DNA of 64,000 nt from Candidatus Omnitrophota bacterium (GTDB lineage Bacteria > Omnitrophota > Gorgyraeia > Gygaellales > JAQTUX01). Every line of letters begins with the position of its first letter. The first letter of the stretch is position 1. The position numbers and the translations under genes are program-made. Below the pieces are notes generated by a model. That model was not told the DNA's origin, made no database searches, and saw only the letters and a program-made list of their open reading frames with translations. The stretch spans positions 208,355-272,354 of the forward strand of contig JAQTUX010000002.1 of the NCBI GenBank assembly GCA_028707125.1. Direction: 5' to 3'. Shown piece after piece: positions 18,184-35,796 of this stretch.

Positions 18184-19367
18184 TTTTGACTTTCTACTTT
18201 TAACTTTTTACTTTCTTTTGATATTTCTTTCTGCAATTCAAGGATCATTCTATGGCGCCTTTCTTTCTCTAACCTCGGCAGATCATCGGGAAACCGCGAC
18301 GCCTTCGCGTGAGGCCGCGCTGAATACTTGAATATATACGCCTTATCAAATCTTACCTTCTTTACGAGATCAAATGTTTCCTGAAAATCCGCCTCGGCCT
18401 CACCGGGAAAACCGACGATGATATCGGTTGTCAGTTCGCCGCCGAGAACGATCTCCCTGTATTTTGTTATTATATCCAAATAACGCTCTTTTGTATAGCC
18501 CCTATTCATAAGCTTCAGGATCCTGTTAGAGGCGGACTGAAGCGGCAGGTGCAGGTATTTCTTGAGCTTATCGCAGTCCCGCATCGCCAGGAACAGGTCA
18601 TCGCCGGCGTCCTTTGGGTGGCTGGTAATGAATGAAAATTGTTTGAGCCCCTTTACATCATTTACTAACCGTAATAACTGAGGAAAATTTATTGGCTCGG
18701 TTTTCAAATTATCTTTCCATTGATTCACATTCTGCCCTAGCAGCGTAATTTTAGTAATGCCGGCCTTAATATCTCCTTCTATCTCCTTAATGATATCCCG
18801 CGGGTTCCTATGCGTAAGTTTCCCGCGCGTATATGGCACAACGCAATAAGAGCAGAAATTCTCGCAGCCCTCGCTGATGACAACAAAGGCATGGTCTTTG
18901 TCCAGATGGAAACCGGTATGGTAGATCTCGTTGCCGCGCGATTCTCCGTCCAATTCATAGCGCTTCTTCTCAAGCAATCCTCTGTGTTTGTTTAAATCCT
19001 TAAGGATCTGCGGGATCTTCGCGATGTCGCGCGTTCCGGCTATAAAATCCACATTCGGCGCGCGGTTGAATATACCCTCGCGGTAACAATTCGCCATGCA
19101 GCCGACCACCCCGATGATCTTTTTGCCGCCCTTGGCCAAACTCCCCACCGCGCTCCAGACCTTATCCTCGGCGTGCTGACGCACGGAGCAGGTGTTAAAG
19201 ATTACGACGTCAGCGTCGGCTTCGTCTTCAACCAGCCGATATCCTGCCTGTATCAGGAGTCCGGAGATCACTTCAGAGTCTCTCGCATTCATCTGGCACC
19301 CGAACGTGCGTACGTACACTCTAAGGCCCTTATGTGCATCTTGGGTTTTACTTGGCTTAACAGACAT
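18180..19367 (-). CDS. miaB: MiaB-family radical SAM methylthiotransferase, apparently lacking a C-terminal TRAM domain
   Basis: UPF0004 N-domain with FGCQMN and a radical SAM core (CxxxCxxC, seen as CENFCSYC). Ends right after the linker helix at 395 aa. Adjacent to miaA. Confidence 0.8.
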   Translation of the reverse strand: MSVKPSKTQDAHKGLRVYVRTFGCQMNARDSEVISGLLIQAGYRLVEDEADADVVIFNTCSVRQHAEDKVWSAVGSLAKGGKKIIGVVGCMANCYREGIFNRAPNVDFIAGTRDIAKIPQILKDLNKHRGLLEKKRYELDGESRGNEIYHTGFHLDKDHAFVVISEGCENFCSYCVVPYTRGKLTHRNPRDIIKEIEGDIKAGITKITLLGQNVNQWKDNLKTEPINFPQLLRLVNDVKGLKQFSFITSHPKDAGDDLFLAMRDCDKLKKYLHLPLQSASNRILKLMNRGYTKERYLDIITKYREIVLGGELTTDIIVGFPGEAEADFQETFDLVKKVRFDKAYIFKYSARPHAKASRFPDDLPRLEKERRHRMILELQKEISKESKKLKVESQK

Positions 19368-20932: not shown

Positions 20933-21780
20933 TCTTGGCCTGTTTAGTGTCTTTCTTTCGCATCTTTTCTAATAGTAAATTGAGGAACCGTACGTCTGCC
21001 TGATGCAGAATATGCACCAACTCATCAAGCCGGTATTCCGTATCGTTAATTTCAACACCTTGTTCTGTATCAATGGTAGCTTGCATTTCATACCTTAATT
21101 AGTATTCATCCGGAAACAGTACGCAAGTTGAAGAACGGTCTGCCTCCGTAATAATCCATATCTTTTTGTCACGATAATTGTACGAGGAAAACAGGCGCAA
21201 GTATTTGCCAATGGCGAATTCATTTTCTCTTTTGTCCTGTTCGTCCATATCACCCCAATCACCCGAAACATGCCGCTTCAGACAGCCGGTAACAAACTTT
21301 GCGAAGCTTGCGTTGTCGGCCAACGCATCATTAATCCCTCTTGTACAAACTACGCGCCCCAGCACAAACAATCCCATTTTGCCCTCCCTCTTGAATCCCT
21401 CTTACAAATGAGCCAAAATTGACCACAGTAGCCCACACGTGACCACAAAAATCTGTAGCCGAGGCCTTCCCCCCGCCCTCCACCTGTATTCAATTTGTCG
21501 CGCTCCTCGTTAGTGATTACTATCAGTAAGTTACGATAGAATTGTAGATTTCTTTATTTTGCCAGCTTTTTATCGACTCCTCTTCCAAGGCCTCTGCATA
21601 CCCTCTTCAATCTTTAAGTTTTTAAGCCAAATTAGCTTAACTCTCTTTTATATAGCAAGTTAGGTTGACTCAACCTGTCTTAAATCTTCAAGACAGCGCG
21701 GACAACTTTAAGACACTGTAAATATTTCAAAAAACATAGGTTACGGAATAACGGCTTAAAGACTTAAAAAATTAACCGGG

Positions 21781-23496
21781 TTAAGGCTGTGGCACTTGAT
21801 ACCGTTCAATCCAATTTCTAAGATTGTCCAAATTAAAAATGTAAACTCTCTGCCGGCCCTCGTCCTTAAACCTCCTTTGGGTAGAAACTATACCGATTTG
21901 TTTCAGCATATGAGTTAATTTGTTTTGCAACAATGCAAAACTAAACTCCTTAGATTTGGAAAAATAGCTCAAAACATAGCTCGCCCTATATCCGCGGAGA
22001 TTTGGTTTAAGAAAAAATGGTTCTTTATCTTTTAATAGGTTTTTTAATACAATCAATGTTTTGGTTAATTCATCCTGTACAATATCGTCATCCGCCTTAG
22101 ACTCTATAGCTTTATAACTAAATTCTGTCATCTGTTTAGTAATGAGGTCTTTAGAATTAGACAAATCATCAATAAGGTTTGCAAGGATAAAGATAGGCTC
22201 CCATATATCAAGGTCGCGATTGCCTAAATGCTCAATGCCGCGAATCAGCTTCTCTTCGTTATACCTTTTATAGATTTCATCGGCATGAGTAAGGACAAAC
22301 TGATACATCTGGTCTCTGGTGTCCTTTTGTAATTTTTGGATTTCTTCGCTCTGTTTATATCTTTTAATACTCTCCTCTTTCTTCTTTCTTATCATTGTAA
22401 TTTTTGTGACCCTGTCTTCTAATACGGGGTCGAGTTGTGATATTCCTCCAAGGCATTTTGGGCAATACGCAGAGAATGTCTCAGGGATAAAATTTCCATA
22501 TTTATCTTTTGCTAATCTTTTAATTTCGCCTGAACATGAAAAACCACTATTTAGAAGCGAAATAAAATCTCCGCTTAATTCCCTGTTTGCTTTTGTAAAA
22601 CTTTCTGCTTCATCAATAAATAATGTTCTTAAGTTAGCGTGGACATCGCGAAAAAGAGCTGCCATAGTTATGTTTGCAAGAGAACACCCGTTAAAGGATA
22701 GTGGAGCCATAATATCCATGAGTAGTGATTTCCCGCTACGCTTTGGTGCTGTAATCCAAAGGTATGGATAATATCGGAACATCTTGAAGCAGTAAGTTCC
22801 CATTAACCAAAGTGCCAAAAAAGCTGCCTGTTGGTCATTTTGGAATAAAATATACGTTCTTAAATAATCTACTATGGAAACAAAAAGCCGATGGGCATCC
22901 GGCCCTCCCTCTCTCTCAATAAATTCAATTACGCCTTTACTTGAAAAATTAGACACCTCTGTGCCTTCGGGCTCTAGTTTAAACCCTAATTCCTGTGCAG
23001 CCTTATAATAGGTAAGGATTTCCTTGCGCGATGTTAAAAGATACTTTCCGTCCTTTGACTTAAACATATAAAACATCCTCCCCTTCTTATAGTCTTGGCA
23101 TGGGTGTATTATTGTCTGCTCTTTTTCTTCTCCGAGATTTTTCTTTATTTTATCGATGTTGATTTCTTCAGGGACGGTATCGACCTGCTCCTGCGACTCC
23201 TCTTTTAACTTCATTACCCGTTTGAATATTTGTTCAACCTCCTTACCCGATATATTTATTGAGGAATCTTTACACTGAAAATGCTTTTTAAATTCCGTTT
23301 TAATGTATAACCTAGACGCCTCTTCCGGGATTTTAGATAAATAGAGCAATAATGGCATTGATTCTTCGATTAATGCTGTGGAGTGTATATTCTTGGGTAT
23401 GCGGCCCAATAGATAGTCGGGATATAATTGGGCTTTATCGACTAACTTTTCGAATCCCTGCTTTTTATGCACGATGAAGAAGTCATCTAGTTTCAT
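21781..23496 (-). CDS. P-loop NTPase, primase/helicase-associated (DUF3987-like)
   Basis: Walker A TAPKRSGKS and Walker B-like LFIDEAE. Its 571-aa size and its position next to a toprim-like gene fit mobile-element replication modules. Confidence 0.5.
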   Translation of the reverse strand: MKLDDFFIVHKKQGFEKLVDKAQLYPDYLLGRIPKNIHSTALIEESMPLLLYLSKIPEEASRLYIKTEFKKHFQCKDSSINISGKEVEQIFKRVMKLKEESQEQVDTVPEEINIDKIKKNLGEEKEQTIIHPCQDYKKGRMFYMFKSKDGKYLLTSRKEILTYYKAAQELGFKLEPEGTEVSNFSSKGVIEFIEREGGPDAHRLFVSIVDYLRTYILFQNDQQAAFLALWLMGTYCFKMFRYYPYLWITAPKRSGKSLLMDIMAPLSFNGCSLANITMAALFRDVHANLRTLFIDEAESFTKANRELSGDFISLLNSGFSCSGEIKRLAKDKYGNFIPETFSAYCPKCLGGISQLDPVLEDRVTKITMIRKKKEESIKRYKQSEEIQKLQKDTRDQMYQFVLTHADEIYKRYNEEKLIRGIEHLGNRDLDIWEPIFILANLIDDLSNSKDLITKQMTEFSYKAIESKADDDIVQDELTKTLIVLKNLLKDKEPFFLKPNLRGYRASYVLSYFSKSKEFSFALLQNKLTHMLKQIGIVSTQRRFKDEGRQRVYIFNLDNLRNWIERYQVPQP

Positions 23497-23498
23497 TG

Positions 23499-24143
23499 TT
23501 ATTTCTCCGGTAAATTAATTATTTTCACTATGGCCCCTTTGCCTATAAGCATCTCGGCAAGACACCTCTCGGCCAAAAAAACATTCTTATTGGTAAATTT
23601 ATCCGAATCGAAGACAATCTGAACTACGCGCCCCTTCAAGGCTATGTTGTCAAAATCCTCTACTGGCTCATGTCCACTCGACCAATTCCAAACCCCTGAA
23701 ATAGCGATTGCAAAGAAGCCTTCTTGGCAGGCCTTTAGTGCCTTTTTTTCGCCTTCCGTTAGGAAAATCGGGACATTCACATCATCAATAATCGGCCAAA
23801 CTTTCGGCGGAATGTAAAGACGGGATTTAACTCCTATAGGCCGTATATATTTACGGGACTTTTTACCTGCCACATCTTCCGGCAAAGGTATATCTAGCTT
23901 AAAATTTAAATCCTTTTCCAAGAAACCATCTTTACCTATATATGGTATAACGTAGCCGCCACCGACCCCTTGTTGCCGATTAAGTAAAGTTTTACTCTCT
24001 TCCGCTGAAGCTGAATATATACGCACCGCGAGAATCATTTCATCTAAAAGTTTAGATCTACGTAAGTCCGCCAAATGCTGTGGTAGCAAGACTTCCTTAA
24101 CGTGTTTCGGCCATTCCTTATTTAAGTGCTTAGGTTTAAACAT
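23499..24143 (-). CDS. toprim-like protein (DUF3854-like)
   Basis: IFLTEGEKKALKA (toprim E-G-x-x-K-A) followed by DSD acidic residues. Immediately downstream of the P-loop gene. Confidence 0.45.
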   Translation of the reverse strand: MFKPKHLNKEWPKHVKEVLLPQHLADLRRSKLLDEMILAVRIYSASAEESKTLLNRQQGVGGGYVIPYIGKDGFLEKDLNFKLDIPLPEDVAGKKSRKYIRPIGVKSRLYIPPKVWPIIDDVNVPIFLTEGEKKALKACQEGFFAIAISGVWNWSSGHEPVEDFDNIALKGRVVQIVFDSDKFTNKNVFLAERCLAEMLIGKGAIVKIINLPEK

Positions 24144-24202
24144 TTTATCCTCCTATTTACTGTATGCTTTGCGTGTCTTGCGCATATTAAGGTAAAAAAA
24201 TA

Positions 24203-24760
24203 TTATTTCCCGGTATCGGCCCTATTCTTTCTTTGGATTTTTACTTTTACGGTACGAGTCTCCTTAATTGTTTCTTCAATGAACTTATTTTTATCAATGC
24301 CGTGTGGGTCTTCTGCTCTTCCAAGAACTGATGCTAATTTTTCGATAATCCGTTTGGCAACCCGGTCATTTTCTACCTGAAATATGAAAGCTTGAGTCTT
24401 CCTGTTCTTGCAGAAACTATCGTAATAATGTTTTAAGAAGTCGCGGAAAACCTTTACTACTTCTGTCAGGTTTAGCGTATTCGTCAATGACATGGTAATA
24501 TCTTCAAGATCGAAATGAAGCATATTCTTCAATATAAATAAAGAGCAGAGCTGATCAATAATGCTTCCTTCAAAGTAAGCATTACGCCCGATATGAATAG
24601 GTTTTGGGATTACTCCTATTTCGCAATAATACTGTATAGTCCTCCGCGTTATCGCAATGCCTTTCTTCTTCAGAATGGCTACCACTTCATCAAGAGTAAG
24701 CCGGTTCTCTAATGGGGGTAATAAATCCGATATGGCTTCCTTAAGTCTATTGTCTGTCAT
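24203..24760 (-). CDS. MerR-family HTH transcriptional regulator
   Basis: N-terminal MerR HTH (LTLDEVVAILKKKGIAITRRTIQYY...IGVI). Confidence 0.6.
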   Translation of the reverse strand: MTDNRLKEAISDLLPPLENRLTLDEVVAILKKKGIAITRRTIQYYCEIGVIPKPIHIGRNAYFEGSIIDQLCSLFILKNMLHFDLEDITMSLTNTLNLTEVVKVFRDFLKHYYDSFCKNRKTQAFIFQVENDRVAKRIIEKLASVLGRAEDPHGIDKNKFIEETIKETRTVKVKIQRKNRADTGK

Positions 24761-25108
24761 TTTCTCCTCTGAACATATATTTAAACCTATGCAAAATACG
24801 CAATACTTACAGTAAGTTTACCATTTAATTCTTAGTTGTCAAGTATTTTTTCAAAGATTTCTTTGTGGCTAAGAAACTCCCATTTAAATAGGTTTCAAGC
24901 CTTCTCGTTATCAAAGGCACATTTAATCGCTGTCGTAATAACCACACGGAATAAATATACACATCCTAGGGTTAATATACATAACCCCGCGTATACTAAT
25001 GTATCACTGAAGGCCCCATCTTTTCTTACTTTCATTTTTGCACTCTCCTTTTTTAAATTCTATTCTCTAACAAACAACCGAACATTATTTTGTCCTTCAA
25101 TTCCACCC

Positions 25109-25657
25109 TTAGAAAACCCCCAATTTCTGGGGGGAGGATTTTTTGTCCTTAACGTAGCGCAAGAAATAACCTGACTTAGTCCTCTGCCCCTTATCCTTGC
25201 TTCCTGCGGGCCTTCCCAGCCTCTTTCCTTGCCTTAATGCCCTTGCTAGGCCGTCCATTGTCCTTGATACGATGAGTTCGCGCTCGTACTCGGCCAAAAC
25301 CATGAGCATCTTTAGAAACATCCGGCCCTCTGGCGTACTGGTGTTAATGTTCTGGGAAAGAGAAATAAAGTGAACGCCGCGATTTTTGAATTCTTCAAAC
25401 AGATTAAGCAAGTGCTTTAAGCTGCGGCCCACTCGGTCTAGCTTGTAGCAAACAACACAATCAATCTTGCCGGCGCGAATATCACCTAACAACTCTTCAA
25501 AAGCTGGTCGGTTATTGTCTTTGCCGCTAAAACCATGGTCGACGTATTCGCGAGTAATCTGATAGTTCATGCGGGTGCAGTAATCTTTTAACGGGATAAT
25601 CTGTGTATCCGTTCTTTGGTCTGAACTGCTAACTCTTGCATAAATTCCGACTTTCAT
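25109..25657 (-). CDS. small serine recombinase (resolvase/invertase family)
   Basis: MKVGIYARVSSSDQ catalytic Ser motif, a resolvase core, and a C-terminal HTH. Start trimmed to the internal Met of the track ORF 25109..25699. Confidence 0.85.
   Translation of the reverse strand: MKVGIYARVSSSDQRTDTQIIPLKDYCTRMNYQITREYVDHGFSGKDNNRPAFEELLGDIRAGKIDCVVCYKLDRVGRSLKHLLNLFEEFKNRGVHFISLSQNINTSTPEGRMFLKMLMVLAEYERELIVSRTMDGLARALRQGKRLGRPAGSKDKGQRTKSGYFLRYVKDKKSSPQKLGVF
25117..25147 (-). terminator. hairpin plus U-tract overlapping the resolvase stop (bidirectional terminator-like)
   Basis: CCCCCA-atttc-TGGGGG stem, flanked by T-runs on both strands (TTTTTTG on plus, TTTTCT on minus). Confidence 0.4.
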
Positions 25658-25677
25658 ATGGGATGCCCACCTTTCGT

Positions 25678-25727
25678 AAAATAAAACGGGCGAGGCCAAT
25701 CCTGTGGGGGATTTTGTGACCTCGCCC
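25678..25727 (-). terminator. Rho-independent terminator-like hairpin downstream of ORF 25882..26478
   Basis: On the minus strand, a GGGCGAGG...CCTCGCCC 8-bp GC-rich stem is followed by GTTTTATTTT. Confidence 0.45.
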
Positions 25728-25881
25728 TAATTCGTGCACGAATGTTAAATTTCTATATCCCCCACATTATCAATGGCTTACAACAATTATTATAACAAAA
25801 AAATGGGGGAATTGCAAAAGGTTTTTTAAAATAAATTGGCAGAAATTATTTTGATGTTACATCTTTAGAGGGGAGTATAAG

Positions 25882-26478
25882 TTACGGTATCGTCGTTTCC
25901 CGGTATTTGTCAGGGGTGACCTGCTCGCACAGTTTTAAAACTTGCTGGAACCGGTTACTTTCGCTCGTTATAAACGACGTGTCATCTTTATTCTTTTTTA
26001 TCGACAGAAGCTCTTTTAGTATTTCGCCCATACTTTTTACTATAACCCCATTCGCTTTAAACGATTTGAGCTGCATCGCTTCGTCTTTCAGACGTCCGTA
26101 AATAAACATTTTATCGTATTTCTTACCGAGGAAAAATTCAGCTTTTTGTTTGACGGATAAATCGTCGTATTTCTTCTTAATATAGTCTTTGACGGTTTCG
26201 CCGATTTGCTGTTGGTTTTTCTTACCGGGATCTCGGTCAAGATAGGCCATAGGGTCGCTGCTACACTGAACTTCCACATGCACGCTACCTTCTATTTTGC
26301 CGTTTCTGACTTTAACCGCGAGAATGTCGAGCTCCTTCCGACCGGATTTTAAGCCTTGCACGGCGAAGTAGCCTTGGGAAGCTAACCAGCCCGTTATTAT
26401 GTCCTCGAATAAATCTGCCATGTCTTTAAGCATAGCATAATAACCGGGAAGCGTAAAGAACAAAACACGAAGTGCCAC
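25882..26478 (-). CDS. hypothetical protein with a possible PD-(D/E)xK nuclease-like motif
   Basis: ELDILAVK...GSVHVEVQCS resembles a D...E.Q/K nuclease core (Mrr-like). Divergent from an XRE/C-protein-like gene with a palindrome between them. Weak call. The track start is a GTG; the true start is probably an internal Met. Confidence 0.3.
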   Translation of the reverse strand: MALRVLFFTLPGYYAMLKDMADLFEDIITGWLASQGYFAVQGLKSGRKELDILAVKVRNGKIEGSVHVEVQCSSDPMAYLDRDPGKKNQQQIGETVKDYIKKKYDDLSVKQKAEFFLGKKYDKMFIYGRLKDEAMQLKSFKANGVIVKSMGEILKELLSIKKNKDDTSFITSESNRFQQVLKLCEQVTPDKYRETTIP

Positions 26479-26482
26479 TTCG
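26468..26482. promoter_or_regulatory. 15-bp palindrome CGAAGTG-C-CACTTCG between divergent genes (candidate operator or C-box)
   Basis: Perfect 7-bp arms around a single central base, sitting between the nuclease-like ORF and the XRE HTH ORF. Confidence 0.4.
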
Positions 26483-26736
26483 TGGTAAAAACGACAATTT
26501 GGCGAGATAATTACTTTATGGCTATACCTACAATTAGGCTTAAATTTGCTCAGAAATTACGTGAGGCGCGCAGGAAGGCTAAATTGACTCAAGAAGAAAT
26601 GGCCGACCGCATCGAGTTCAGCGTCCGATATTATCAGATGTTAGAATCGAAAACTCCACCTGCGATTAAAATTGATAGCATAGAAAAAATCGCAGACGTG
26701 CTAAAAATAAATCCTGCCGAGCTGTTGAAGTTTTAA
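26482..26736 (+). CDS. XRE-family helix-turn-helix regulator (controller-protein-like, about 75-84 aa)
   Basis: AQKLREARRKAKLTQEEMADRIEFSVRYYQMLE is a Cro/C1-type HTH. The track start is a GTG at 26482. An ATG at 26518 is an alternative start. Confidence 0.7.
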   Translation: MVKTTIWRDNYFMAIPTIRLKFAQKLREARRKAKLTQEEMADRIEFSVRYYQMLESKTPPAIKIDSIEKIADVLKINPAELLKF

Positions 26737-27179
26737 TTCAACCCAAACTTTTTAGTAAAAGCAGAAGACATAATAGCTACTATTATACCAATAGCAATAC
26801 CAATGAAGAGCGTCCATATTCTATCTGATCTTCGTTGCCGTTCTTCTTCTAAATAGAGATCAGCTTTTGTTGTACAAAAGAAAAGCTGTTTATTAAAATC
26901 ATCCCTATTTATAATCTTTTGTCCGATATATTCGAATTCTCCTTTTCCAAATGATGCAGTGTATAACGTAATAGCTAATTCTCTATTCTTAGAATTGTAA
27001 ATATCTTTGCCATTCTGACTCATTATAGAATCAATATAACCACCTGTTATTAAATTAACGAAAGGATAAGCATCCCGGTGATCATTATATCTCTTAGGTA
27101 AGATTTTAATAATTTGACCTAAGTTCATTTCCTTTTTATCTCTAAGCTCTTTTAATATATTATGAGAAATGTTCTCCAT
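26733..27179 (-). CDS. hypothetical protein with C-terminal transmembrane helix
   Basis: 148-aa ORF in AT-rich island DNA, with a C-terminal hydrophobic segment (WTLFIGIAIGIIVAIMSSAF). No recognised domain. Confidence 0.3.
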   Translation of the reverse strand: MENISHNILKELRDKKEMNLGQIIKILPKRYNDHRDAYPFVNLITGGYIDSIMSQNGKDIYNSKNRELAITLYTASFGKGEFEYIGQKIINRDDFNKQLFFCTTKADLYLEEERQRRSDRIWTLFIGIAIGIIVAIMSSAFTKKFGLN

Positions 27180-27317
27180 AGATAAAACCCCACCAGATTT
27201 GTAATTTTTGTCTATCTGTCTACCGTAAAGCTCAGACCAGCCTTTTGTTTGTTCTTATTTGACCAAAAGGAACTTTTCTTTGCAGAGAATTCTTTTATTT
27301 ATTGTTTTTGCTAAGCC

Positions 27318-27524
27318 TTATCTTCTATGGCATTCCGGACAACAATACGCACAACCATCTGCCCTTGAATACCTTCTCTTAGCTTCTTGAACGGCACCGT
27401 GACAACTTGCAAAATTTCCTAAAGGTTCCCTGTTTTCAGGCTCAGGTAGCCAGTTACAGCTATAGTTATGGACCTCGTGATCACCGTTTGCTTGTGCTTG
27501 TTTATTTACGCAATATTGCGCCAT
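27318..27524 (-). CDS. small Cys/His-rich hypothetical protein (putative metal-binding)
   Basis: 68 aa with a C..C...H...C...GC.YCC.ECH pattern. Last gene of the lexA-like gene string. Confidence 0.35.
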   Translation of the reverse strand: MAQYCVNKQAQANGDHEVHNYSCNWLPEPENREPLGNFASCHGAVQEAKRRYSRADGCAYCCPECHRR

Positions 27525-27561
27525 AATTGACCTCCTTTTGATATGATTAATTTTGGTTAAG

Positions 27562-27780
27562 CTATATTAAAGGCTGACTATCAATATTATCACCTTCTCT
27601 CTTGTCCGGATTATCGCGTAGATAGTTTACACCATTAATTTTAACCGTATGATAACCGGGCAGATTACCATTTTTAACCATTTTGACTGCCTCTGTTCGC
27701 CGAACAACCCTGTCTCCAATCTTATAATGAGTGTTGCCGCCTGTATCATTTTCCTTTCTTCCTGTTATTCTTCTAGCCAT
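27562..27780 (-). CDS. DUF3892-like small protein
   Basis: YKIGDRVV...NGNLPGYHTV.ING..YLRDNPD pattern resembles DUF3892. Confidence 0.45.
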   Translation of the reverse strand: MARRITGRKENDTGGNTHYKIGDRVVRRTEAVKMVKNGNLPGYHTVKINGVNYLRDNPDKREGDNIDSQPLI

Positions 27781-27818
27781 AAATCCTCCTTTTCATGTTT
27801 TAGCATTCATTGTTAGTT

Positions 27819-28316
27819 TTATTCACTCTTCTCGTTCTGTTCATCTTTTCCAGGTGGCATACATACCTTACAAGGCACATAGCCTTTGCTTTTTGCTTCT
27901 TTAACAGAACTGAAAACTATTAAATTTTGAGGTTTGATTTTCTTAGCCCATCTGCACCATGTATAATGATATTTATTAGAATTAATGCTGCCTACGTAGA
28001 CAGATTCCTTTCTCTCTGTTTCAATGGCTTCTTTATTCTCTTGAGACCTCTGTGAGATAGCCTCATATTTTTGAGTATAATTCTGTTTTGGATAAGTTGG
28101 CTGTGAATCACTACAATTTGGATAATATGGCGCACATTTTGCGGAAAGGGGCGTCCCATCACAACATCTGCATCCACATACCCCACCATGATGAGAACAA
28201 CACCCACTTCTGGCTTCGGCAAATGGAGTATTATAAAACGACAAAAGAAATAAGATAAGGATGAATAATACGCTACTTTTCGATATTTTAATTTGGCTCA
28301 AAGCTATATTCTCCAA
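27819..28316 (-). CDS. secreted Cys-rich protein with C-terminal Ada-type zinc-binding-like motif
   Basis: Signal peptide (VLFILILFLLSFYNTPFAEA), a Cys cluster (CCSHHGGVCGCRCCDG), and a C-terminal KYHYTWCRWAKKI...FSS..EA...GYVPCKVCMP motif resembling the Ada_Zn_binding fold. Confidence 0.45.
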   Translation of the reverse strand: MENIALSQIKISKSSVLFILILFLLSFYNTPFAEARSGCCSHHGGVCGCRCCDGTPLSAKCAPYYPNCSDSQPTYPKQNYTQKYEAISQRSQENKEAIETERKESVYVGSINSNKYHYTWCRWAKKIKPQNLIVFSSVKEAKSKGYVPCKVCMPPGKDEQNEKSE

Positions 28317-28327
28317 ATTGATTATAT

Positions 28328-28966
28328 CTATTCTTTATGGCTCTCTTTGGGTATAACTGCTATAACAACACCTTGAATTTGAAAATCATCAGTTAAAATA
28401 ATCGGTTTGTGTCCTTCATTAGAAGATTTTGGTCTTAAAATAATCATATTTTGCGTACGGTGAAATTCTTTAATGGTCGCTTCCTCATTAATCAATGCTA
28501 CGACCCTATCTCCTTCATTGGCTGTTGACTGTTGTCTAACCAAAACAAGATCCCCATCGTTAATCCCTGCTTTATCCATAGAATCTCCCTGGGCATGTAA
28601 TAGATAATATTTTGACCCTGGCTTTGCAAGTGCAGTGGATACAGGAATAAATCCTTCTATATTTTCTTCTGCCAATATTGGCGTGCCGCAGGCTACGGTT
28701 CCAACTATTGGGATGTTCGTAGTTTGGGCATGCATCGAACCGAAATCCAAATCTCTAATAAGCTGGTAATCCCCATTTTTAAATTTCTTTATGACACCCT
28801 TTTCTTGAAGCTGCTCAAGTATATCCTGTACTGATCGCGGAGATTTGTAACTTAAATCAGCCATTAACTCCCTTATGGATGGAGCATATCCCTTGTGCAT
28901 AAGCCAGTTTCTAATATGACGAATAGCCTCTAACTGTTTCTTTGTTAAGCAATTCTCGTTCTTCAT
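28328..28966 (-). CDS. LexA-like repressor (S24 peptidase family)
   Basis: N-terminal winged HTH (PSIRELMADLSYKSPRSVQDILEQLQEKGVI). C-terminal S24 domain with Ser (GDSM) and Lys (KEF) catalytic-dyad context, plus the AQGDSM...GDLVLV pattern. Confidence 0.8.
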   Translation of the reverse strand: MKNENCLTKKQLEAIRHIRNWLMHKGYAPSIRELMADLSYKSPRSVQDILEQLQEKGVIKKFKNGDYQLIRDLDFGSMHAQTTNIPIVGTVACGTPILAEENIEGFIPVSTALAKPGSKYYLLHAQGDSMDKAGINDGDLVLVRQQSTANEGDRVVALINEEATIKEFHRTQNMIILRPKSSNEGHKPIILTDDFQIQGVVIAVIPKESHKE

Positions 28967-28982
28967 ACATACAATTGTATGT
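28967..28982. promoter_or_regulatory. perfect 16-bp palindrome ACATACAATTGTATGT (candidate operator of the LexA-like repressor)
   Basis: Abuts the lexA-like ATG, within the divergent region shared with the putative restriction endonuclease gene. Confidence 0.45.
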
Positions 28983-29075
28983 TACTGTATGGTTTTTGTC
29001 AATAGAAATCTGCTAGGAATTAATCTGTGGACTTATAGATATTGACCTGATATAATTCAACTGGAAGGGCTTTAT

Positions 29076-30062
29076 ATGGCACTAAAACCACAGAATAAAA
29101 AACACGAAGCACAAATTCTAGCAGGCACCATTGGAAGAAAAAAAGGGCACAATTTTGAAAAGGATTTGACTTGTGCTCTCAATTTGATAGACGTCAGACA
29201 AATCTTCCCCTACCCGAATATTCCGCACCATATCGTCATGGGAAAACCTTCCTTGCTGCTTTTATATTATGTAGCTCAAAAGAAGGAATTAAAAAATATT
29301 AAAAAGATTAAAGCTTGGTGGCTTGGAGGACTCGCAACCTCAGGGGAAGGAGATAAATTAACCGATAAAGACGGTCAACCAATTGCAAAAAGCAAAAGCG
29401 ATGTCCTAATTGAAATTCAACACGGAGACAAGGTAGACATTGCGGGGATTTCTGTAAAAACTTGTGATAAGGAAACTCCGACTAACGACCAGCTTTATTT
29501 CACTACAGCTTCAGCTTTTTGTGGCTTATTAAGAGCGAACAATATACCTATCTCAAAGGATGCTGAAATTGCTTTAAAAATGTTCTGTGGTGACGCGGGA
29601 TTTAGACCAACCGATTCTTTAGCAACCATCAAAGAAAGAAAATCTGACCCGGACAGATGGTTTTGGGAAGAATTGCCAAAGAAATTACGTTTAGAACTAG
29701 AGGCAGCTTTCATTAAATACCAAAAAGAAATAAGCACGGTTTTGTTACAAAAAGCTTACCCAAATGACCCGTATCCTCCAGAATTTTTACTTCATCAAAC
29801 AAAGAAATACTCTAATATTAATAATTGCGAGGTCGCTTTATTTACAATAGACGAATTAATCGACTTGTCTTGCAAAGCCTGCCGATTTACTTTAAAACCT
29901 TATTTTGTAAGAAAAGGAAGGTTTAAAGGAGATCCGAGTAAACATTTAGCTCCTCGATTTGGTTTTATACAGATGCAGCGAGGAGGTCAAAAGCAACATC
30001 CAACGCAATTACAATTTAATCTTCAGGCCGGTTATTTCTATAAGATTGGAGAAAATGCTTAA
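29076..30062 (+). CDS. putative Type II restriction endonuclease (cognate of the adjacent C5-MTase)
   Basis: 328-aa ORF convergent with, and overlapping by 4 nt, a C5-cytosine methyltransferase. A Vsr gene sits next to the pair. Possible PD-(D/E)xK core (SDVLIEIQHGDKVDIAGISVKT). No recognisable family. Confidence 0.4.
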   Translation: MALKPQNKKHEAQILAGTIGRKKGHNFEKDLTCALNLIDVRQIFPYPNIPHHIVMGKPSLLLLYYVAQKKELKNIKKIKAWWLGGLATSGEGDKLTDKDGQPIAKSKSDVLIEIQHGDKVDIAGISVKTCDKETPTNDQLYFTTASAFCGLLRANNIPISKDAEIALKMFCGDAGFRPTDSLATIKERKSDPDRWFWEELPKKLRLELEAAFIKYQKEISTVLLQKAYPNDPYPPEFLLHQTKKYSNINNCEVALFTIDELIDLSCKACRFTLKPYFVRKGRFKGDPSKHLAPRFGFIQMQRGGQKQHPTQLQFNLQAGYFYKIGENA

Positions 30063-31435
30063 TAAAACTTCTTCAATAGATACTCTGCTATTGTCTTAGC
30101 AAGTAACGGCGGCACTGCATTACCTATCCCCTTCCTGACATCTCCATAATTACCAAGAAATATAAAATTGTCTGGAAATGTTTGACATCTAGCGGCCTCT
30201 CTAATCGTCAATGATCTTGTGCTGGAAGGATGCACGTTTCGACATCCAGAAATCATGCTGAAATTCGTACCAATAGTTGAGCAAGGCTCATTCCATTTTA
30301 TTCGCTTGTAAGTCGTATTGTAGCCGCTCGGCGGTCTCAGGGCTGGGTTTGTATTATCGTGCGCGCTCATTCCTTCAGGAACATTTTTTAACCATTTTAT
30401 TACATGATCTGGATGAGCAATTGCAAAATGCCACCGATCATTTTTAGATTCTTCGCCCGATTCAAGACATTCCAAGTCTTTAGTAGCATCTCTAAATGTT
30501 TTATACGGCTTTAATCCAATTCCGGGCAGCATATTCTGGTTCTTGCCGTGAGTAGGTACAGGGAAAGCTGGCACGATGTTGATATCTTTTCTAATCCCAA
30601 CAAATAAAACTCGTTCCCGCGATTGTGGTACCCCATAATTTTGAGCATTAATTTCTTGATATAAACATTTATACCCGGCTTTGTCAAATTTTTCAACCAT
30701 ATCATCTTTAACAAAACCTCCGCTTGGGGTCATCATAGACAATAGCGTTCTGACATTTTCTAAAACAACAAACTTTGGTTTTAAAATAGATGAAATTCTA
30801 GCAAATTCGTTATAAAGTTGATTTCGTGGATCATACACGTCTCGCTTACCAGCAAGGCTGAAGCCTTGGCATGGCGGCCCTCCGACTATCCCATCTAATG
30901 CTTTAATTTGTTCATGCCAATGTAATAACTTATCATTCGTTATATCTTTAACGTCATTCCCAAGATTTATTGCCTCTGGAAAATTAGCTTTAAACATATC
31001 TCTTGCGGATTTTTCTTTTTCCGCAAATCCCAATATGCTAAACCCGGCTTGTTTGAAGCCAAGTGCCAAACCTCCTATACCAGAGAAAAGTGCAATAACA
31101 GCTCTTTCTTTCGGGAATAGGTCACCCGCAATTTCGCCAACACCATCTTTGTGGTCGCGCGCCTCTGCTTCTTTTCTTCGTCCGTTGCGACCATTTGATG
31201 TTTGTGCAGAAAGCTTATACTGATGCTTAACATATCGTTTTTTAAAAGAGATTTTCCCTTTTTTATACTCTACGTCAAATTTGCTAAAAAAGTTTTTTAT
31301 ATTCTCTCCCTCTGCTTTTGTTGGAGTTTTTGTACCCAATTCCCACTGAGAAAGAATATATTGCTGAAGTCCCATTAAGCCTGCCATCTTAGCCTGACTC
31401 AATTTCCGCCTCAGTCGTTCAGTTCTAATCCACAT
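30059..31435 (-). CDS. DNA (cytosine-5)-methyltransferase with N-terminal HTH
   Basis: Motif I FSGIGGLALG, motif IV GGPPCQGFS, motif VI ENV. N-terminal XRE-like HTH (RRKLSQAKMAGLMGLQQYILSQWE). Confidence 0.9.
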   Translation of the reverse strand: MWIRTERLRRKLSQAKMAGLMGLQQYILSQWELGTKTPTKAEGENIKNFFSKFDVEYKKGKISFKKRYVKHQYKLSAQTSNGRNGRRKEAEARDHKDGVGEIAGDLFPKERAVIALFSGIGGLALGFKQAGFSILGFAEKEKSARDMFKANFPEAINLGNDVKDITNDKLLHWHEQIKALDGIVGGPPCQGFSLAGKRDVYDPRNQLYNEFARISSILKPKFVVLENVRTLLSMMTPSGGFVKDDMVEKFDKAGYKCLYQEINAQNYGVPQSRERVLFVGIRKDINIVPAFPVPTHGKNQNMLPGIGLKPYKTFRDATKDLECLESGEESKNDRWHFAIAHPDHVIKWLKNVPEGMSAHDNTNPALRPPSGYNTTYKRIKWNEPCSTIGTNFSMISGCRNVHPSSTRSLTIREAARCQTFPDNFIFLGNYGDVRKGIGNAVPPLLAKTIAEYLLKKFY

Positions 31436-31444
31436 ATGCTTACC

Positions 31445-31849
31445 CTATTTTATTTTTCTTAGAAATTGTGTTTGACATTTTTGTAAGATCTTTTTTATCT
31501 GACATTCCCATAAAATTACAACCTTCCATTTTCGCTTTTCTAGCTCTTCTTGTACAATTTTATCTCTTATTCTATTCTTGCTAATTTTATCATTCCAAAA
31601 GACTGCATTTCTAATTGGTTTCAGTCTTCCCTTCCTGCAATGTTTATGCCCATGCCAAAAACAACCGTGGACAAAAATGGCTACTTTATTCTTTGGTATG
31701 ATTATATCCGGCTTTCCCGGTAGTTGATTTGTTCTCAGGCTATATTTTATTCCTTGCCCCCTTAATACCATTCTTACTTCTTTTTCAATTGAAGTATTTT
31801 TCTGGCCGACTTTTTTCATTCTAAAAGAAGTAGCTTTGTCTGTTTTCAT
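31445..31849 (-). CDS. vsr: very-short-patch repair endonuclease
   Basis: VAIFVHGCFWHGH motif, 134 aa, adjacent to the C5-MTase. Confidence 0.85.
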   Translation of the reverse strand: MKTDKATSFRMKKVGQKNTSIEKEVRMVLRGQGIKYSLRTNQLPGKPDIIIPKNKVAIFVHGCFWHGHKHCRKGRLKPIRNAVFWNDKISKNRIRDKIVQEELEKRKWKVVILWECQIKKILQKCQTQFLRKIK

Positions 31850-31938
31850 ATTTATATACGATTGTTACCTACGCTCGGTTCCTATTTTCTTTTTTTATAA
31901 TTCACTATTTCACAACGAGTTAGACCTTCATATACACA

Positions 31939-32397
31939 TCACCCAACAATTGTAAAATCGGTATGTAACATTGCCGCCATCTTGCAGCCAAATGTTTTGA
32001 TGTAAACTCGAGAACATTTGGCTGCCGTGTCTGCGCCGCCGCGGGGTAAATCTTGCTGCGCAACATTTACCCCGCACGCTTGGCGGCCAGACGCCTCAGC
32101 CAGTACCTTATCCAATCTCTTGCCGCCTACTAACTTCTCTTTCTGCTCCCTCGTCAACCCCTTTATCCTCTTCTCCATCAAAAACGCCTTCTTAAAATAC
32201 TTATATTCCTTAGACCACACCAGCTCTACCGGCCTTCTATCCCTGGTATATTTAGCGCCTTTGCCATTATTGTGAAGCTCAAGCCGTTTTTCGACATTCG
32301 GAGTATAACCAGTATAGAATGTCCCATCACAGCACTCCACGATATAAACCCAGAACTTTCCTGCGCGTTTAAACTTCCTCCTCTTGCGCTGCTTCAT
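31939..32397 (-). CDS. GIY-YIG nuclease-superfamily protein (UPF0213-like) with atypical C-terminal extension
   Basis: FWVYIVECCDGTFYTGYTPNVEKRLELHN is a GIY-YIG core. The last roughly 50 codons run through two GC-rich perfect palindromes, so the true CDS may be shorter. Confidence 0.65.
   Translation of the reverse strand: MKQRKRRKFKRAGKFWVYIVECCDGTFYTGYTPNVEKRLELHNNGKGAKYTRDRRPVELVWSKEYKYFKKAFLMEKRIKGLTREQKEKLVGGKRLDKVLAEASGRQACGVNVAQQDLPRGGADTAAKCSRVYIKTFGCKMAAMLHTDFTIVG
31985..32076. repeat. two adjacent GC-rich perfect palindromes (13-bp and 11-bp stems)
   Basis: GCAGCCAAATGTT-16nt-AACATTTGGCTGC at 31985-32026 and GCGGGGTAAAT-13nt-ATTTACCCCGC at 32042-32076. This is an island of GC in AT-rich DNA. 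Confidence 0.6.
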
Positions 32398-32471: not shown

Positions 32472-33524
32472 TTAGCCTAGTCTAACTTTTGAGCAATATT
32501 CTGAAAACTTATCATATTTATACAATTTTCCTTGTGGTCCTAAAATTGGCGTTAATAATTTAATAAACTTATCTAAGACTTCCCTGCTAGGATCTACCAA
32601 ATACAATTCATCTAAATATAGTGGCTTTTTCTTAGAAAGACGAGACCGAACAACTTCATTTAATAATGAGTGAGCCATAAAATCAGTCTCTGGCAATGAA
32701 TACCCAACTATTATTAGAGCCTCACACTTTTCTAATGAACTTCTTGCTAAAGACCATATTGATGAATATGGCTCATCTGCGATATCTTTCGCAATCCCAG
32801 GTGGAAGTATTGAGATTCTCTCTGGCCTCGGATGCCCACTTCGTGATTTTTCAACATGTAACGGACGATCTTTTAACGCTATTCTTTTGTTATATTTATG
32901 AATAAGCCAATTTAAACTTCCATGCATTTTCAGTAGCATTACTTTACATTCGGGAAAATCATCTGGGGTTTGCGTAGTACCAAGCCATTTCTTTACCCAC
33001 CGACCAGATAGGCCTCCAATTCCGCTAACTCCATAACCGAATTTAGGATTCCAGATATTATGATTTTTCTTATTAAAAGATTCTTCGATAACTAAATCAT
33101 AATTGAATGTTATGATAACATCGCCTTTTTTTAAATTATCCAAAAGTTTTACATGACATTTACTCTGCACTGAATGTAAATGATTATTCTTAAGTTTACA
33201 GGTTGTTTGGATGTAAACCCTACGAATCAATTCCGTTAAATCTCCTAGTCGCATTGACCATTTGAATGGTTGCCCAATAGATTTTGATACAGCACAAATA
33301 CCTTCTCGAGCCTCAATATCTCTAAAATAATATTCTAAACTTACTTCAGATGTTTTTTTATATAAATCCCAAACTTGTTTAAGAACTCTACGTGCTAACT
33401 CCTGAGTGCCTCTGCCTTTAATAAGATGGGCTATATCAAAAAAATCTTTGTCTACGGGTGGAGGGATTCCTTCTTGATCGAAACCCGCCTTGGTTGCGCC
33501 AGCACCTAAAATAAATACGCGCAT
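32472..33524 (-). CDS. SIR2-like domain protein (SIR2_2/DUF4020-type, stand-alone)
   Basis: All four SIR2_2 motifs are present: FILGAGAT, VIITFNYDLVIEE, KMHGSLNW, IIVGYSLPETD. 350 aa with no fused effector or sensor domain recognised. Confidence 0.7.
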   Translation of the reverse strand: MRVFILGAGATKAGFDQEGIPPPVDKDFFDIAHLIKGRGTQELARRVLKQVWDLYKKTSEVSLEYYFRDIEAREGICAVSKSIGQPFKWSMRLGDLTELIRRVYIQTTCKLKNNHLHSVQSKCHVKLLDNLKKGDVIITFNYDLVIEESFNKKNHNIWNPKFGYGVSGIGGLSGRWVKKWLGTTQTPDDFPECKVMLLKMHGSLNWLIHKYNKRIALKDRPLHVEKSRSGHPRPERISILPPGIAKDIADEPYSSIWSLARSSLEKCEALIIVGYSLPETDFMAHSLLNEVVRSRLSKKKPLYLDELYLVDPSREVLDKFIKLLTPILGPQGKLYKYDKFSEYCSKVRLG

Positions 33525-33785
33525 TTCCCCTCCTTCTCATACAATTAGATCTATTCTTTCTATCAGTTTTACAACTTTCTTATTCTAAATTACTTAATTT
33601 CTTTATTATTCCCAGAATCATCTCTCGGTACTTGCACCAACGGTCAACCATAGGTGGATAGGTAGACTTTTTTATTTTTTAGTTCGTTGTCTTCCATAAT
33701 GTTACGCAAATATCCTTTACTCATTCATCGGTGTTCGAAATGAATGAGTGTGATCATTCTTCGAATCAATGTATTGCCTAAGTCG

Positions 33786-34883
33786 CTATTTTAGAATTCG
33801 ACATACTTCCGATAACAAAACGTCTAAATCATTTGAGAAATCAACCTGCGTCACAGTCGGAAGAACTTCTCTTTTTCTAACTTGAGAATGTAAACAACTA
33901 TCCGCAATTTTTCGTGAAGAATTTTCGAGATGCAGCATGGACTCTTTAAAGCTTTTTGTACCGTTGTAATTATTTGCCACTTCCGTAAAATTTTTAACGT
34001 TAAGTAGTGGCGGAACATGGTCAATAATTGCACGCGTTAATAAAATGACTGAAAAGTATGCCTCATTCTCAAACGCCATATTAAGCTCTTCACAAAATTT
34101 AATTAATTTGCTCAAATCAAACTCCTTTGAATTTATAGATTGTAATTCTTTAATCCTGTCTTCATTGACAAATTTTACTCCAAGCTTGCATTTGTTTTTA
34201 TTGCTTTGGGTTGGGTGCTTTAGACTTAAACGTTTGTAAAGTTTTATTGAAAGTTCAATGAAATCTTTGATTTGGTTGAATAAATAAATGCCTTCTTGAG
34301 CAACGCATTCATAATATATATGGCTTGGCAACAGCATTCCTTGGCTTAGAGCATTTGAATCCCGCGTCATAATACTTTTGGGCATTCGACTTTGAATAAA
34401 TGCTTGCTTTTTTCCCTTTTCAAAGACAAAATTCTTAATTTGATAAAAAACTTTCCGCTCTTCTTTTGTATCGCTGTCGAATTTATAATTTAAAAAAATG
34501 AGTTCGATTTCGTCCTTAACCTCAACTATCCTTCGAAATAACTCTTTAAGTTTGCTCTCAAATTTATCAATGGAGAAATTGCTACCACTTAATTTTTCTA
34601 TCATAGTTTTTACTTCGTCAGCGCTTTTTTCTCCCCACCCATTAGGTAAACCGTGAATATCTCCCCATTCTACGCTGAATCTTTTATTTAGCGGTGGGGA
34701 ATCGAAATCTCCAAAATACATGCGCCCATGCCAACCCGCAAAGGATCCACTCCATGAATTAGCAATTTTATTACAAGCATCTAACATGTTTTCTGCAGAA
34801 TGCAGCGTTTTATCGAGTTCCAAATTGTTTTGTCTCTTATAATCCTCAAGGAGAGAATTTAATTGACTTAAATTTATCGTCAT
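33786..34883 (-). CDS. hypothetical protein (possible HEPN-like Rx4H motif near C-terminus)
   Basis: 365-aa AT-rich ORF upstream of the SIR2 gene on the same strand. LTRAIIDH could be an Rx4H HEPN motif. No confident family. Confidence 0.3.
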   Translation of the reverse strand: MTINLSQLNSLLEDYKRQNNLELDKTLHSAENMLDACNKIANSWSGSFAGWHGRMYFGDFDSPPLNKRFSVEWGDIHGLPNGWGEKSADEVKTMIEKLSGSNFSIDKFESKLKELFRRIVEVKDEIELIFLNYKFDSDTKEERKVFYQIKNFVFEKGKKQAFIQSRMPKSIMTRDSNALSQGMLLPSHIYYECVAQEGIYLFNQIKDFIELSIKLYKRLSLKHPTQSNKNKCKLGVKFVNEDRIKELQSINSKEFDLSKLIKFCEELNMAFENEAYFSVILLTRAIIDHVPPLLNVKNFTEVANNYNGTKSFKESMLHLENSSRKIADSCLHSQVRKREVLPTVTQVDFSNDLDVLLSEVCRILK

Positions 34884-35013: not shown

Positions 35014-35796
35014 TCATTTTTCCGCGACGACAAGCATTTCAAAATCTTCCGGAGTCAATCTATCCTTCCTTGAGAAAACCCCCAGTTTCGCTCCAAAAAT
35101 ATCTATTTTCTTATACCCAAGCGTCTTTAAAAGCCACGTTATCTCGCTGGGCACGTAATAACGTTCGTTACACTTAAGCTCCCTTTTATTGCCGGAATCA
35201 TCTTCAAAAACAACAGTGTTATGATCACGGAAGGTCATCAGATCAAAGGAGCACTCTTTACACTGGGACTGGCCTTCTTTCTGCGCCGACTTATAGAATT
35301 CACTGACCGAATGAAACAGCGGGAACAATCCGTTTAATGCGGTGAAAATGAGATTGCCTTTACTTTTAAGCGCTTTTGTCGCGCTCTTGAGGATCTCAAA
35401 ATTCATCTCATCCGTTTCCATAAGAGAAAACCCGCCTTCGCATAGCATAATTGCCAGATCAAATTCACCGTCAAACGGAAGATTTCGGGCATCTTGTGTT
35501 TGGAAGTCGGTGCTCACCCCTGCCTCTTGCGCCTTTTCCCTTGCCCTTTTGATCTGATTCTCGGAAAGATCAACACCGGTCACCTTATACCCTCTTTTCG
35601 TAAGCTCAATAGCGTGGCGGCCAGTGCCGCAGCCGATATCAATAATTCTTAAGGATTTATCATGCGCTATTTCGCGTTCGATGAAATCACATTCACCTAT
35701 CGTCCCTCGCACATAAACCTCTTTATCATATTTATTCGCGTAATTCTCAAATAATGACTCGTACCATTGTTTCATGATCTTCCTCCGTCTTTTCAA
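35014..35796 (-). CDS. class I SAM-dependent methyltransferase
   Basis: Motif I IIDIGCGTGRH plus acidic motif II (TGVDLSE). Confidence 0.8.
   Translation of the reverse strand: MKRRRKIMKQWYESLFENYANKYDKEVYVRGTIGECDFIEREIAHDKSLRIIDIGCGTGRHAIELTKRGYKVTGVDLSENQIKRAREKAQEAGVSTDFQTQDARNLPFDGEFDLAIMLCEGGFSLMETDEMNFEILKSATKALKSKGNLIFTALNGLFPLFHSVSEFYKSAQKEGQSQCKECSFDLMTFRDHNTVVFEDDSGNKRELKCNERYYVPSEITWLLKTLGYKKIDIFGAKLGVFSRKDRLTPEDFEMLVVAEK

Follow-up and report, generated by a model that had tools for sequence, protein, structure and literature searches.

Adjacent SIR2_2 and two-module protein genes in an Omnitrophota genome are probably separate single-gene defence modules

Two adjacent genes and the test of their pairing

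Here we have examined two adjacent genes in a 64,000-nucleotide (nt) stretch of a Candidatus Omnitrophota genome (contig JAQTUX010000002.1; the whole stretch is hereafter called the window). One encodes a SIR2_2 protein of 350 amino acids (aa); the other encodes a 365-aa protein for which Pfam, PADLOC and NCBIfam hold no match, NCBIfam having none for the SIR2 protein either. A sequence-only reading had proposed a new two-gene system in which the 365-aa protein is the sensor of infection and the neighbouring SIR2 NADase the effector that it switches on. Both open reading frames (ORFs) of that reading are present on the minus strand, with the lengths and coordinates that it gave (Table 1), and each protein has a 100% match on a contig of a Candidatus Omnitrophica metagenome-assembled genome. 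Judged by sequence comparison, however, the proposed pair is not present outside this genome, and what lies at the locus appears to be the co-location, in a hotspot, of two single-gene modules.

The pairing was tested by three routes, namely the genomic context of full-length relatives, tblastn, and profile hidden Markov models (HMMs) run on all ORFs of at least 50 aa. Queried with the whole 365-aa protein or with either half of it, tblastn returned no match in any of the 80 genomic loci taken for the SIR2 family. Profile HMMs of the two modules that make up the 365-aa protein, an N-module and a C-module, found either module in 0 of 83 SIR2 loci; reciprocally, the SIR2 family profile found no SIR2 of this family in any of 15 loci bearing relatives of the 365-aa protein, so that co-occurrence is absent from these 98 loci and confined to the window. 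Full-length relatives of the 365-aa protein are limited to P0122 and P0123 (37-39% identity), both of which adjoin unrelated genes; downstream of P0123 lies a 363-aa gene that does not encode a SIR2. A conserved downstream partner of ~360-400 aa for N-module proteins was also considered and was rejected, the downstream genes in L001, L088 and L090 being unrelated to one another and to SIR2. The sequence-only reading had itself named a lack of conservation beside SIR2 homologs as the outcome that would count against a SIR2-plus-sensor pair, and this is what the co-occurrence check found, the 365-aa protein accompanying no other SIR2 of this family in the loci compared.

The 261-nt spacer between the genes contains a perfect 9-bp hairpin (33720-33748), located ~38 nt past the stop codon of the 365-aa gene and lacking a U-tract, with a predicted RNA folding energy of -17.9 kcal/mol (z = -2.0). 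A consensus scan of the spacer for promoters and terminators gave nothing above background and is uninformative. An AGGAGG Shine-Dalgarno sequence lies 4 nt before the SIR2 ATG, which supports the annotated start as well as independent translation initiation of SIR2. Hairpin and Shine-Dalgarno sequence together hint at separate transcription and expression of both genes, without being decisive.

The two genes form a low-GC islet (0.34-0.35) between flanks of 0.43-0.52, with the GIY-YIG gene on one side at 0.45-0.52. On the other side is a methyltransferase gene whose orthologs are 73-90% identical and whose linkage to miaB is kept in many metagenomic contigs. In one metagenomic relative (L098), the methyltransferase (90% identical), GIY-YIG (83%) and miaB genes are contiguous, separated by gaps of only ~100 nt; this empty site shows the SIR2 and 365-aa genes to be a 2.6-kb insertion, separate from a nearby 12.7-kb element that carries a large serine recombinase gene. 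Aligned with the window junctions, the empty site is too diverged to fix the end points of the insertion. Low GC between 19 and 35 kb hence reflects two insertions and not one island, and we rejected the idea that both genes are cargo of a serine-recombinase island on three grounds: a displaced 5' fragment of miaB, the step in GC, and the empty site in L098. The sequence-only reading had described a single defence island. Restriction-modification (R-M) and candidate defence genes do lie near each other here, but the GC step and L098 divide them between two separate insertions.

The interval between the methyltransferase gene and miaB behaves as a variable hotspot. Indeed, seven related loci (L099, L101, L109, L110, L116, L129 and L141) carry 0.8-2.8 kb of unrelated cargo at this place, and neither the SIR2 gene nor the 365-aa gene was found in 80 loci related to the interval. 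Adjacency within such a hotspot is no evidence of a system. An exact-match look-up of the flanking methyltransferase retrieved no strain variant.

The SIR2 protein and its relatives

The 350-aa protein matches Pfam SIR2_2 (PF13289) with 32.6 bits, above the threshold of 24.5 (E=1e-7), and in PADLOC it is matched by generic SIR2 models only, over the core (best 8e-12). The four SIR2 motifs listed in the sequence-only reading are all found (FILGAGAT at residues 4-11, VIITFNYD at 136-143, KMHGSLNW at 199-206 and IIVGYS at 271-276). Pfam and PADLOC detect no second domain, which bears out the stated absence of SLOG, HerA, pAgo/APAZ, STAND and a long, DSR-like extension. In an alignment of 25 family members, G7, A8, G9, A10, N141, D143 and H201 are invariant; a Cys4 zinc site is not conserved in these sequences, C267 being the sole invariant Cys, with no CxxC pair. 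These features agree with the criteria (GxG loop, xxNxD, catalytic His and others) used to tell immune 'SIRim' proteins apart from classical sirtuins (10.1101/2024.09.18.613514). The family also has a Trp-rich insert of its own at residues 150-195.

Comparisons with known structures extend this picture. Searched against the PDB, the family profile retrieves antiphage SIR2 chains only (8yhx at 2.5e-8, then 8j4u and 8w9l). With the AlphaFold model of the protein (pLDDT 71.7, pTM 0.78), Foldseek places SIR2 subunits of SIR2-HerA on top, from E=1e-9 (8w9l) to 1e-6, followed by KomC (3e-5), DSR2 (8e-5) and ThsA (1e-4), with deacylase sirtuins at 8e-4 or worse; the top matches are thus ~5-6 orders of magnitude better in E-value than the sirtuins, and ThsA is marginally ahead of them. 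By these computational measures, the 350-aa protein falls among the defence-type SIR2_2 proteins, being more like defence NADases than deacylase sirtuins. The sequence-only reading had likewise taken it to be of the defence type and non-metabolic, and a grouping with metabolic deacetylases, which would have spoken against this, is seen neither in the Foldseek ranking nor in the PDB profile matches; the missing Cys4 zinc site fits as well.

Relatives of the SIR2 protein are spread patchily across phyla: the 22 close loci whose neighbours were analysed belong to Acidobacteriota, Omnitrophota, Elusimicrobia, Nitrospirota, Proteobacteria and Methylacidiphilum, among other groups. The 120 best homologs are all 337-407 aa long, and phage and plasmid databases hold no relatives. 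Clustering of neighbours at the 22 close loci gave no conserved neighbour family, the recurrent ones being type I R-M subunits at three loci. The closest homolog, P0002 (60% identity; L095:1-760), stands alone between a 23S-5S rRNA operon and msrA. All contigs that bear P0002 end within rRNA, its gene lying directly downstream of the 23S-5S rRNA operon. In L018, the gene order is hsdM-hsdS-SIR2-hsdR with gene overlaps of 4 nt and 22 nt; in L013 (6826-14079), a SMODS nucleotidyltransferase and an S_4TM effector (a CBASS-like pair) together with SIR2 are all inside the hsdS..hsdR interval of one type I R-M operon, and in L019 the same hsdS/hsdR flanks are present. Other neighbours of the family include IrrE/M78 peptidases and Schlafen/AlbA_2 proteins. 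From these contexts, we read the SIR2 family as an autonomous single-gene module.

Known SIR2 defence systems resemble this protein mainly in the catalytic core. SIR2-HerA (Nezha; 8w9l, 8wld, 8sxx, 8yhx) is the best match in both structure and profile, with a SIR2_2-type Rossmann core, GxG, NxD, a catalytic His and a size of 340-430 aa; however, identity is 14-17%, and no HerA gene is found beside the window gene or among 117 neighbours of its 22 close homologs, so HerA-driven assembly and activation cannot apply here. The SIR2 domains of DSR2/DSR1, ThsA, KomC, Avs5 and SPARSA, all retrieved as fold matches, belong to defence NADases with the same catalytic core, but these have fused sensors or partner genes (a C-terminal solenoid; SLOG/Macro plus ThsB; KomA/B; STAND; APAZ plus pAgo) that are lacking in our case. 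Specifically, the SLOG/Macro fusion and ThsB of Thoeris ThsA are absent, SIR2_2 being the only domain and no TIR neighbour being present in the window or the 22 loci; the long C-terminal sensor of DSR1/DSR2 (~1000-aa proteins) is missing here and, by length, from the best homologs; the Aga_SIR2 models of PADLOC (SPARSA) match the SIR2 core only, with no APAZ and no pAgo neighbour; and in place of the KomA/KomB of Kongming (KomABC), GIY-YIG and the 365-aa protein flank the window SIR2, an adenosine deaminase occurring in 1 of 22 homolog loci. The nested loci recall PrrC/RloC. Indeed, prrC encodes a latent effector embedded in an R-M operon and sequestered by the type IC EcoprrI enzyme (PMC3874165), and the SIR2 homolog occupies the same place between hsdS and hsdR in L018, L013 and L019. 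The differences are that a predicted NADase takes the place of an anticodon nuclease and that only a minority of loci, the window not among them, show this order; the window SIR2 is not within a type I R-M operon, and the nearby R-M set is of type II and on a separate element. By analogy, a PrrC-like guard role is possible but unproven for part of the SIR2 family.

The two modules of the 365-aa protein

The 365-aa protein is composed of two modules, N (aa 1-225) and C (aa ~235-365). The conserved core of the N-module comprises S45, S47, H52, Y56, P63, F69, E72, W73, G74, W83, R174, D175, A178 and G182. Its polar part (S45, S47, H52, Y56, E72, W73, G74, W83, R174 and D175) looks like a pocket for binding or catalysis and matches no known domain. 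A word-indexed search found the N-module in 10 proteins only, so that it seemed rare; an exhaustive profile search found it in 624 cluster representatives at E<=1e-3 and in 223 at E<=1e-10. It is nearly always N-terminal and followed by a variable tail.

The nature of these tails was surveyed in the best 150 N-module matches, among which 103 representatives have a complete N-module and 83 of those a tail of at least 60 aa. The 83 tails fall into 27 clusters, of which the one holding the present C-module has 10 members, and at least 21 tails have predicted transmembrane helices. Pfam assigns REase_DpnII-MboI to 13 tails, a CAP12/Pycsar-type TIR to 13, Ymh (a HEPN family) to five, PNP_UDP_1 to two, and TIR_2 and TIR to one each; a single DUF4145 tail is borderline (22.0 bits against a 23.1-bit cut-off). 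No SIR2 is fused to the N-module in these 83 proteins. A module joined in cis to interchangeable effectors, as seen among these sequence relatives, is what commonly marks an immune sensor. Since the family carries its effectors in cis, the 365-aa protein appears as a complete unit and not as an orphan sensor in need of SIR2. At one locus (L090:5210-6681), the N-module stands alone in a gene for 226 aa, which comes 42 nt after a gene with an Abi_C domain, like an N-module and effector in split-gene form.

Annotation libraries touch this family from the effector side. PADLOC calls the TIR-fused relatives (n=13) PDC-S35, a candidate single-gene system, through profiles that span the TIR domain and the distal half of the N-module and leave the conserved N-terminal core uncovered; these profiles do not match the 365-aa protein itself. 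Other N-module fusions are matched by PADLOC models for CBASS/Pycsar TIR effectors, ThsB, and pAgo-associated restriction endonuclease (REase)/HEPN proteins. With AbiJ-NTD fusions, RAZR (PD-T7-4) and PDC-S35, the 365-aa protein shares the plan of an N-terminal sensing module followed by an exchangeable toxic domain (HEPN, TIR, REase or transmembrane), but its N-module matches none of the N-terminal domains described so far and it has no zinc finger.

Hundreds of proteins of 210-260 aa share 55-66% identity with the C-module; their N-termini differ, zinc ribbons (DUF2321, DZR) and DUF2158 being among them. Across 112 sequences, D256, R284, H289, P292, S311, F312, I326, H332, R336, P342, Q346, D354, L356 and R362 are invariant, and R324 is kept in at least 90%. 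The AlphaFold (AF2) model of the C-module (pLDDT 86.7, mostly >90 across the helical region) is all-alpha with a four-helix layout. As read from the secondary-structure string of that model, helix H1 would span residues 258-272, H2 276-289, an insert 290-309, H3 310-331 and H4 350-364. HEPN domains are described as two alpha-hairpins with an H2-H3 insert, in which H2 carries an acidic residue and an R..H motif (Rx4-6H) closes H3 or opens the H3-H4 loop (PMC3710099); the predicted layout of the C-module, with two hairpins and an H2-H3 insert, agrees with the structural part of this description. H2 carries R284, D288 and H289. R324 lies in H3 and H332 exactly at the helix end, with an x7 spacing that is outside the canonical x4-6 and equal to that between R146 and H154, the catalytic pair of RAZR's DUF4145 HEPN domain (PMC13017515). 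On the model, R324-x7-H332 would be a better catalytic candidate than R284-x4-H289. The sequence-only reading had pointed to LTRAIIDH as a possible Rx4H HEPN-like motif: this sequence is present at residues 282-289, with R284 and H289 invariant in the 112 homologs, and a HEPN-like C-terminus is a plausible proposal, but the Rx4H lies in helix 2 and not at the end of helix 3.

Phage and plasmid databases yielded two plasmid relatives of the C-module only, and a viral structure library gave no match to its model. On a Methylobacter plasmid (L178; NZ_CP091425.1, 55760-68221), a C-module protein has as neighbours a HEPN-family protein (DUF3644), an AAA ATPase and helicase pair, and a thermonuclease, a setting that looks defence-like.

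Competing readings and neighbouring genes

We consider it probable that the islet holds two independent single-gene modules of the abortive-infection type, inserted together or successively between the methyltransferase and GIY-YIG/miaB genes. The SIR2 protein would be a latent NAD+ hydrolase that depletes NAD+ once triggered. Its sensing may take place within the protein itself, possibly through the Trp-rich insert (150-195) or the C-terminal extension, or alternatively via host complexes; where nested as hsdS-SIR2-hsdR, it might be held in check by type I R-M as PrrC is. The 365-aa protein would couple a sensor N-module in cis to a helical, HEPN-like C-module, which could act as a metal-independent RNase using R324/H332, perhaps aided by R284/D288/H289. 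An anti-phage role, with a trigger for each, is thereby predicted for both genes.

Several observations weigh against this reading and feed its rivals. The SIR2 and 365-aa genes are direct neighbours with one orientation and like GC in a shared 2.6-kb islet, and known SIR2 effectors usually come with a sensor partner or domain; a functional link local to this genome is thus conceivable, and comparative data alone do not decide it. As a general two-gene system in which the 365-aa protein activates SIR2, however, the pairing deserves hardly any credence, given the lack of co-occurrence either way in the profile HMM comparison, the 261-nt hairpin-bearing spacer, the strong Shine-Dalgarno sequence of SIR2's own, the N-module effectors in cis with 0 of 83 fused to SIR2, and a SIR2 family that is otherwise partner-less. 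On the SIR2 side, the confidence of the model is moderate, with residues 21-86 poorly defined; many family loci are singleton insertions amid housekeeping genes, so that the defence context is moderate; and the literature searched holds no validated single-gene SIR2 of ~350 aa, one recent domain-centric screen having excluded single-gene systems. It is very unlikely that the protein instead has a housekeeping or regulatory function, as a deacylase of proteins or an ADP-ribosyltransferase: several homologs do sit amid msrA, peptidase M3 and ribonucleotide reductase genes, and sirtuin structures are among the fold matches, but there is no conserved Cys4, defence SIR2s rank before sirtuins, the phyletic spread is patchy, the low-GC insertion is missing from close relatives, and family members nest in R-M and CBASS-like loci. 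Somewhat less improbable, though still unlikely, is that the SIR2 family acts as a PrrC-like guard, meaning a latent NADase silenced by a bound R-M enzyme and freed by phage anti-restriction factors that put the enzyme out of action. The overlapping hsdM-hsdS-SIR2-hsdR genes of L018 and the related order in L013 and L019 recall prrC, and 0.6 kb separates the window SIR2 from type II R-M genes; yet the arrangement occurs in 3 of 22 close loci only, the closest homolog has no R-M nearby, and the R-M genes of the window are on a separately integrated element, so their adjacency is probably coincidental.

For the C-module, the points against a HEPN domain are that neither Pfam HEPN nor DUF4145 matches any of the 112 members, that its best PDB sequence match is 'Dandelion-hepn' at E=0.2, and that Foldseek ranks 1wol (a HEPN homologue) best at E=2.6, with Csm6 at 8.6. 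The comparison by hhalign with a DUF4145-like relative gave E=0.033. With no significant sequence, profile or structure match, the assignment is without statistical support, and a HEPN identity, as suggested by the model, is plausible but not established. The module may therefore be something other than a HEPN RNase, either a different effector or a non-catalytic interaction domain whose invariant residues serve a different chemistry, a real if lesser possibility which would accommodate the non-canonical R-x7-H and the otherwise unexplained invariant polar residues D256, S311, R336, Q346, D354 and R362. Against it stand the position of the module, which in sister proteins is taken by Ymh-HEPN, DUF4145-like, TIR, nuclease and transmembrane effectors, and its four-helix layout with an H2-H3 insert and an R..H pair at the end of H3, for which the R-x7-H of RAZR is a precedent.

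Returning to the reading as two single-gene modules, the SIR2 family would, if this is true, be the smallest self-sufficient SIR2 immune effector, which would raise the question of how a bare SIR2 stays silent and then fires. Through the 365-aa protein, a large family barely covered by annotation libraries comes into view, with hundreds of representatives for either module. What remains of interest at this locus is accordingly the regulation of the bare SIR2, including its PrrC-like nesting, and the nature of the N-module family. A bolder joint reading, which we regard as improbable, would make the SIR2 family a sensor-less latent NADase that monitors immune complexes (silenced by R-M and released by phage in PrrC style) and the 365-aa protein the founder of a broad new family of immune receptors made of one protein each, whose N-module reads a phage cue and drives eight or more kinds of effector, among them a HEPN-like RNase domain not recognised before.

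The 12.7-kb recombinase element next to the islet explains the form of the GIY-YIG ORF. At ~31.97-32.0 kb, the miaB 5' coding sequence recurs in diverged form (RVYIKTFGCKM versus RVYVRTFGCQM); with the recombinase gene overlapping the start of miaB, this second copy indicates that the element integrated into the miaB 5' end. The 152-aa 'GIY-YIG' ORF (31939-32397) is consequently a chimera of a native GIY-YIG protein of ~93 aa, as in L098, and the displaced miaB 5' fragment, its GC-rich tail (31939-32135) being the displaced native miaB 5' end, SRVYIKTFGCKM. The sequence-only reading was right that SIR2 adjoins a GIY-YIG gene and the 365-aa gene in this supposed defence island, but had not recognised the GIY-YIG ORF as chimeric.

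Table 1. Features of the two-gene islet and its surroundings (positions in the window; (-), minus strand)
Feature	Position	Strand	Basis or remark
SIR2_2 (SIRim-type) protein gene, stand-alone, 350 aa, predicted latent NAD+ hydrolase	32472..33524	(-)	PF13289, PADLOC, alignment, Foldseek
SIR2 codons for GAGA	33495-33506	(-)	
SIR2 codon for N141	33102-33104	(-)	
SIR2 codon for H201	32922-32924	(-)	
Shine-Dalgarno AGGAGG, 5' of SIR2 ATG	33529..33534	(-)	Read from sequence
Spacer separating SIR2 and 365-aa genes	33525..33785	(-)	Sequence
365-aa protein gene	33786..34883	(-)	ORF confirmed
N-module, predicted sensor/regulatory domain	34209..34883	(-)	Profile search, fusion census
C-module, unannotated all-alpha domain, predicted HEPN-like effector	33789..34181	(-)	Homologs, AF2 model
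Codons for R284/D288/H289	34017-34034	(-)	Helix 2
Codon for R324	33912-33914	(-)	Helix 3
Codon for H332	33888-33890	(-)	End of helix 3
Native GIY-YIG gene, domain part	32136..32397	(-)	Islet flank; Pfam GIY-YIG 4.6e-18; GC 0.45
Native SAM-dependent methyltransferase gene	35014..35796	(-)	Other islet flank; Pfam Methyltransf_25
Recombinase element (12.7 kb) at miaB 5' end	19289-31970		Supplies replacement MiaB N-terminus; miaB start inside recombinase gene 3' end
Large serine recombinase	19289-20932		Overlaps start of miaB
Primase/helicase-like (replication) genes	21781-24143		Recombinase element
Small second serine recombinase	25109-25699		Recombinase element
LexA-like repressor	28328-28966		Recombinase element
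REase	29076-30062		Type II R-M set of recombinase element
Helix-turn-helix-fused C5-methyltransferase	30059-31435		Type II R-M set of recombinase element
Vsr	31445-31849		Type II R-M set of recombinase element

The recombinase element also contains two small Cys-rich ORFs (27318-27524, 68 aa; and 27819-28316, 165 aa, with a signal-like N-terminus). Among the cargo found in the methyltransferase-miaB interval of other genomes, inspection by eye suggests a 335-aa ORF in L109 as RhuM-like and a trio of ORFs in L116 (105, 227 and 339 aa) as AbiE-like candidates.

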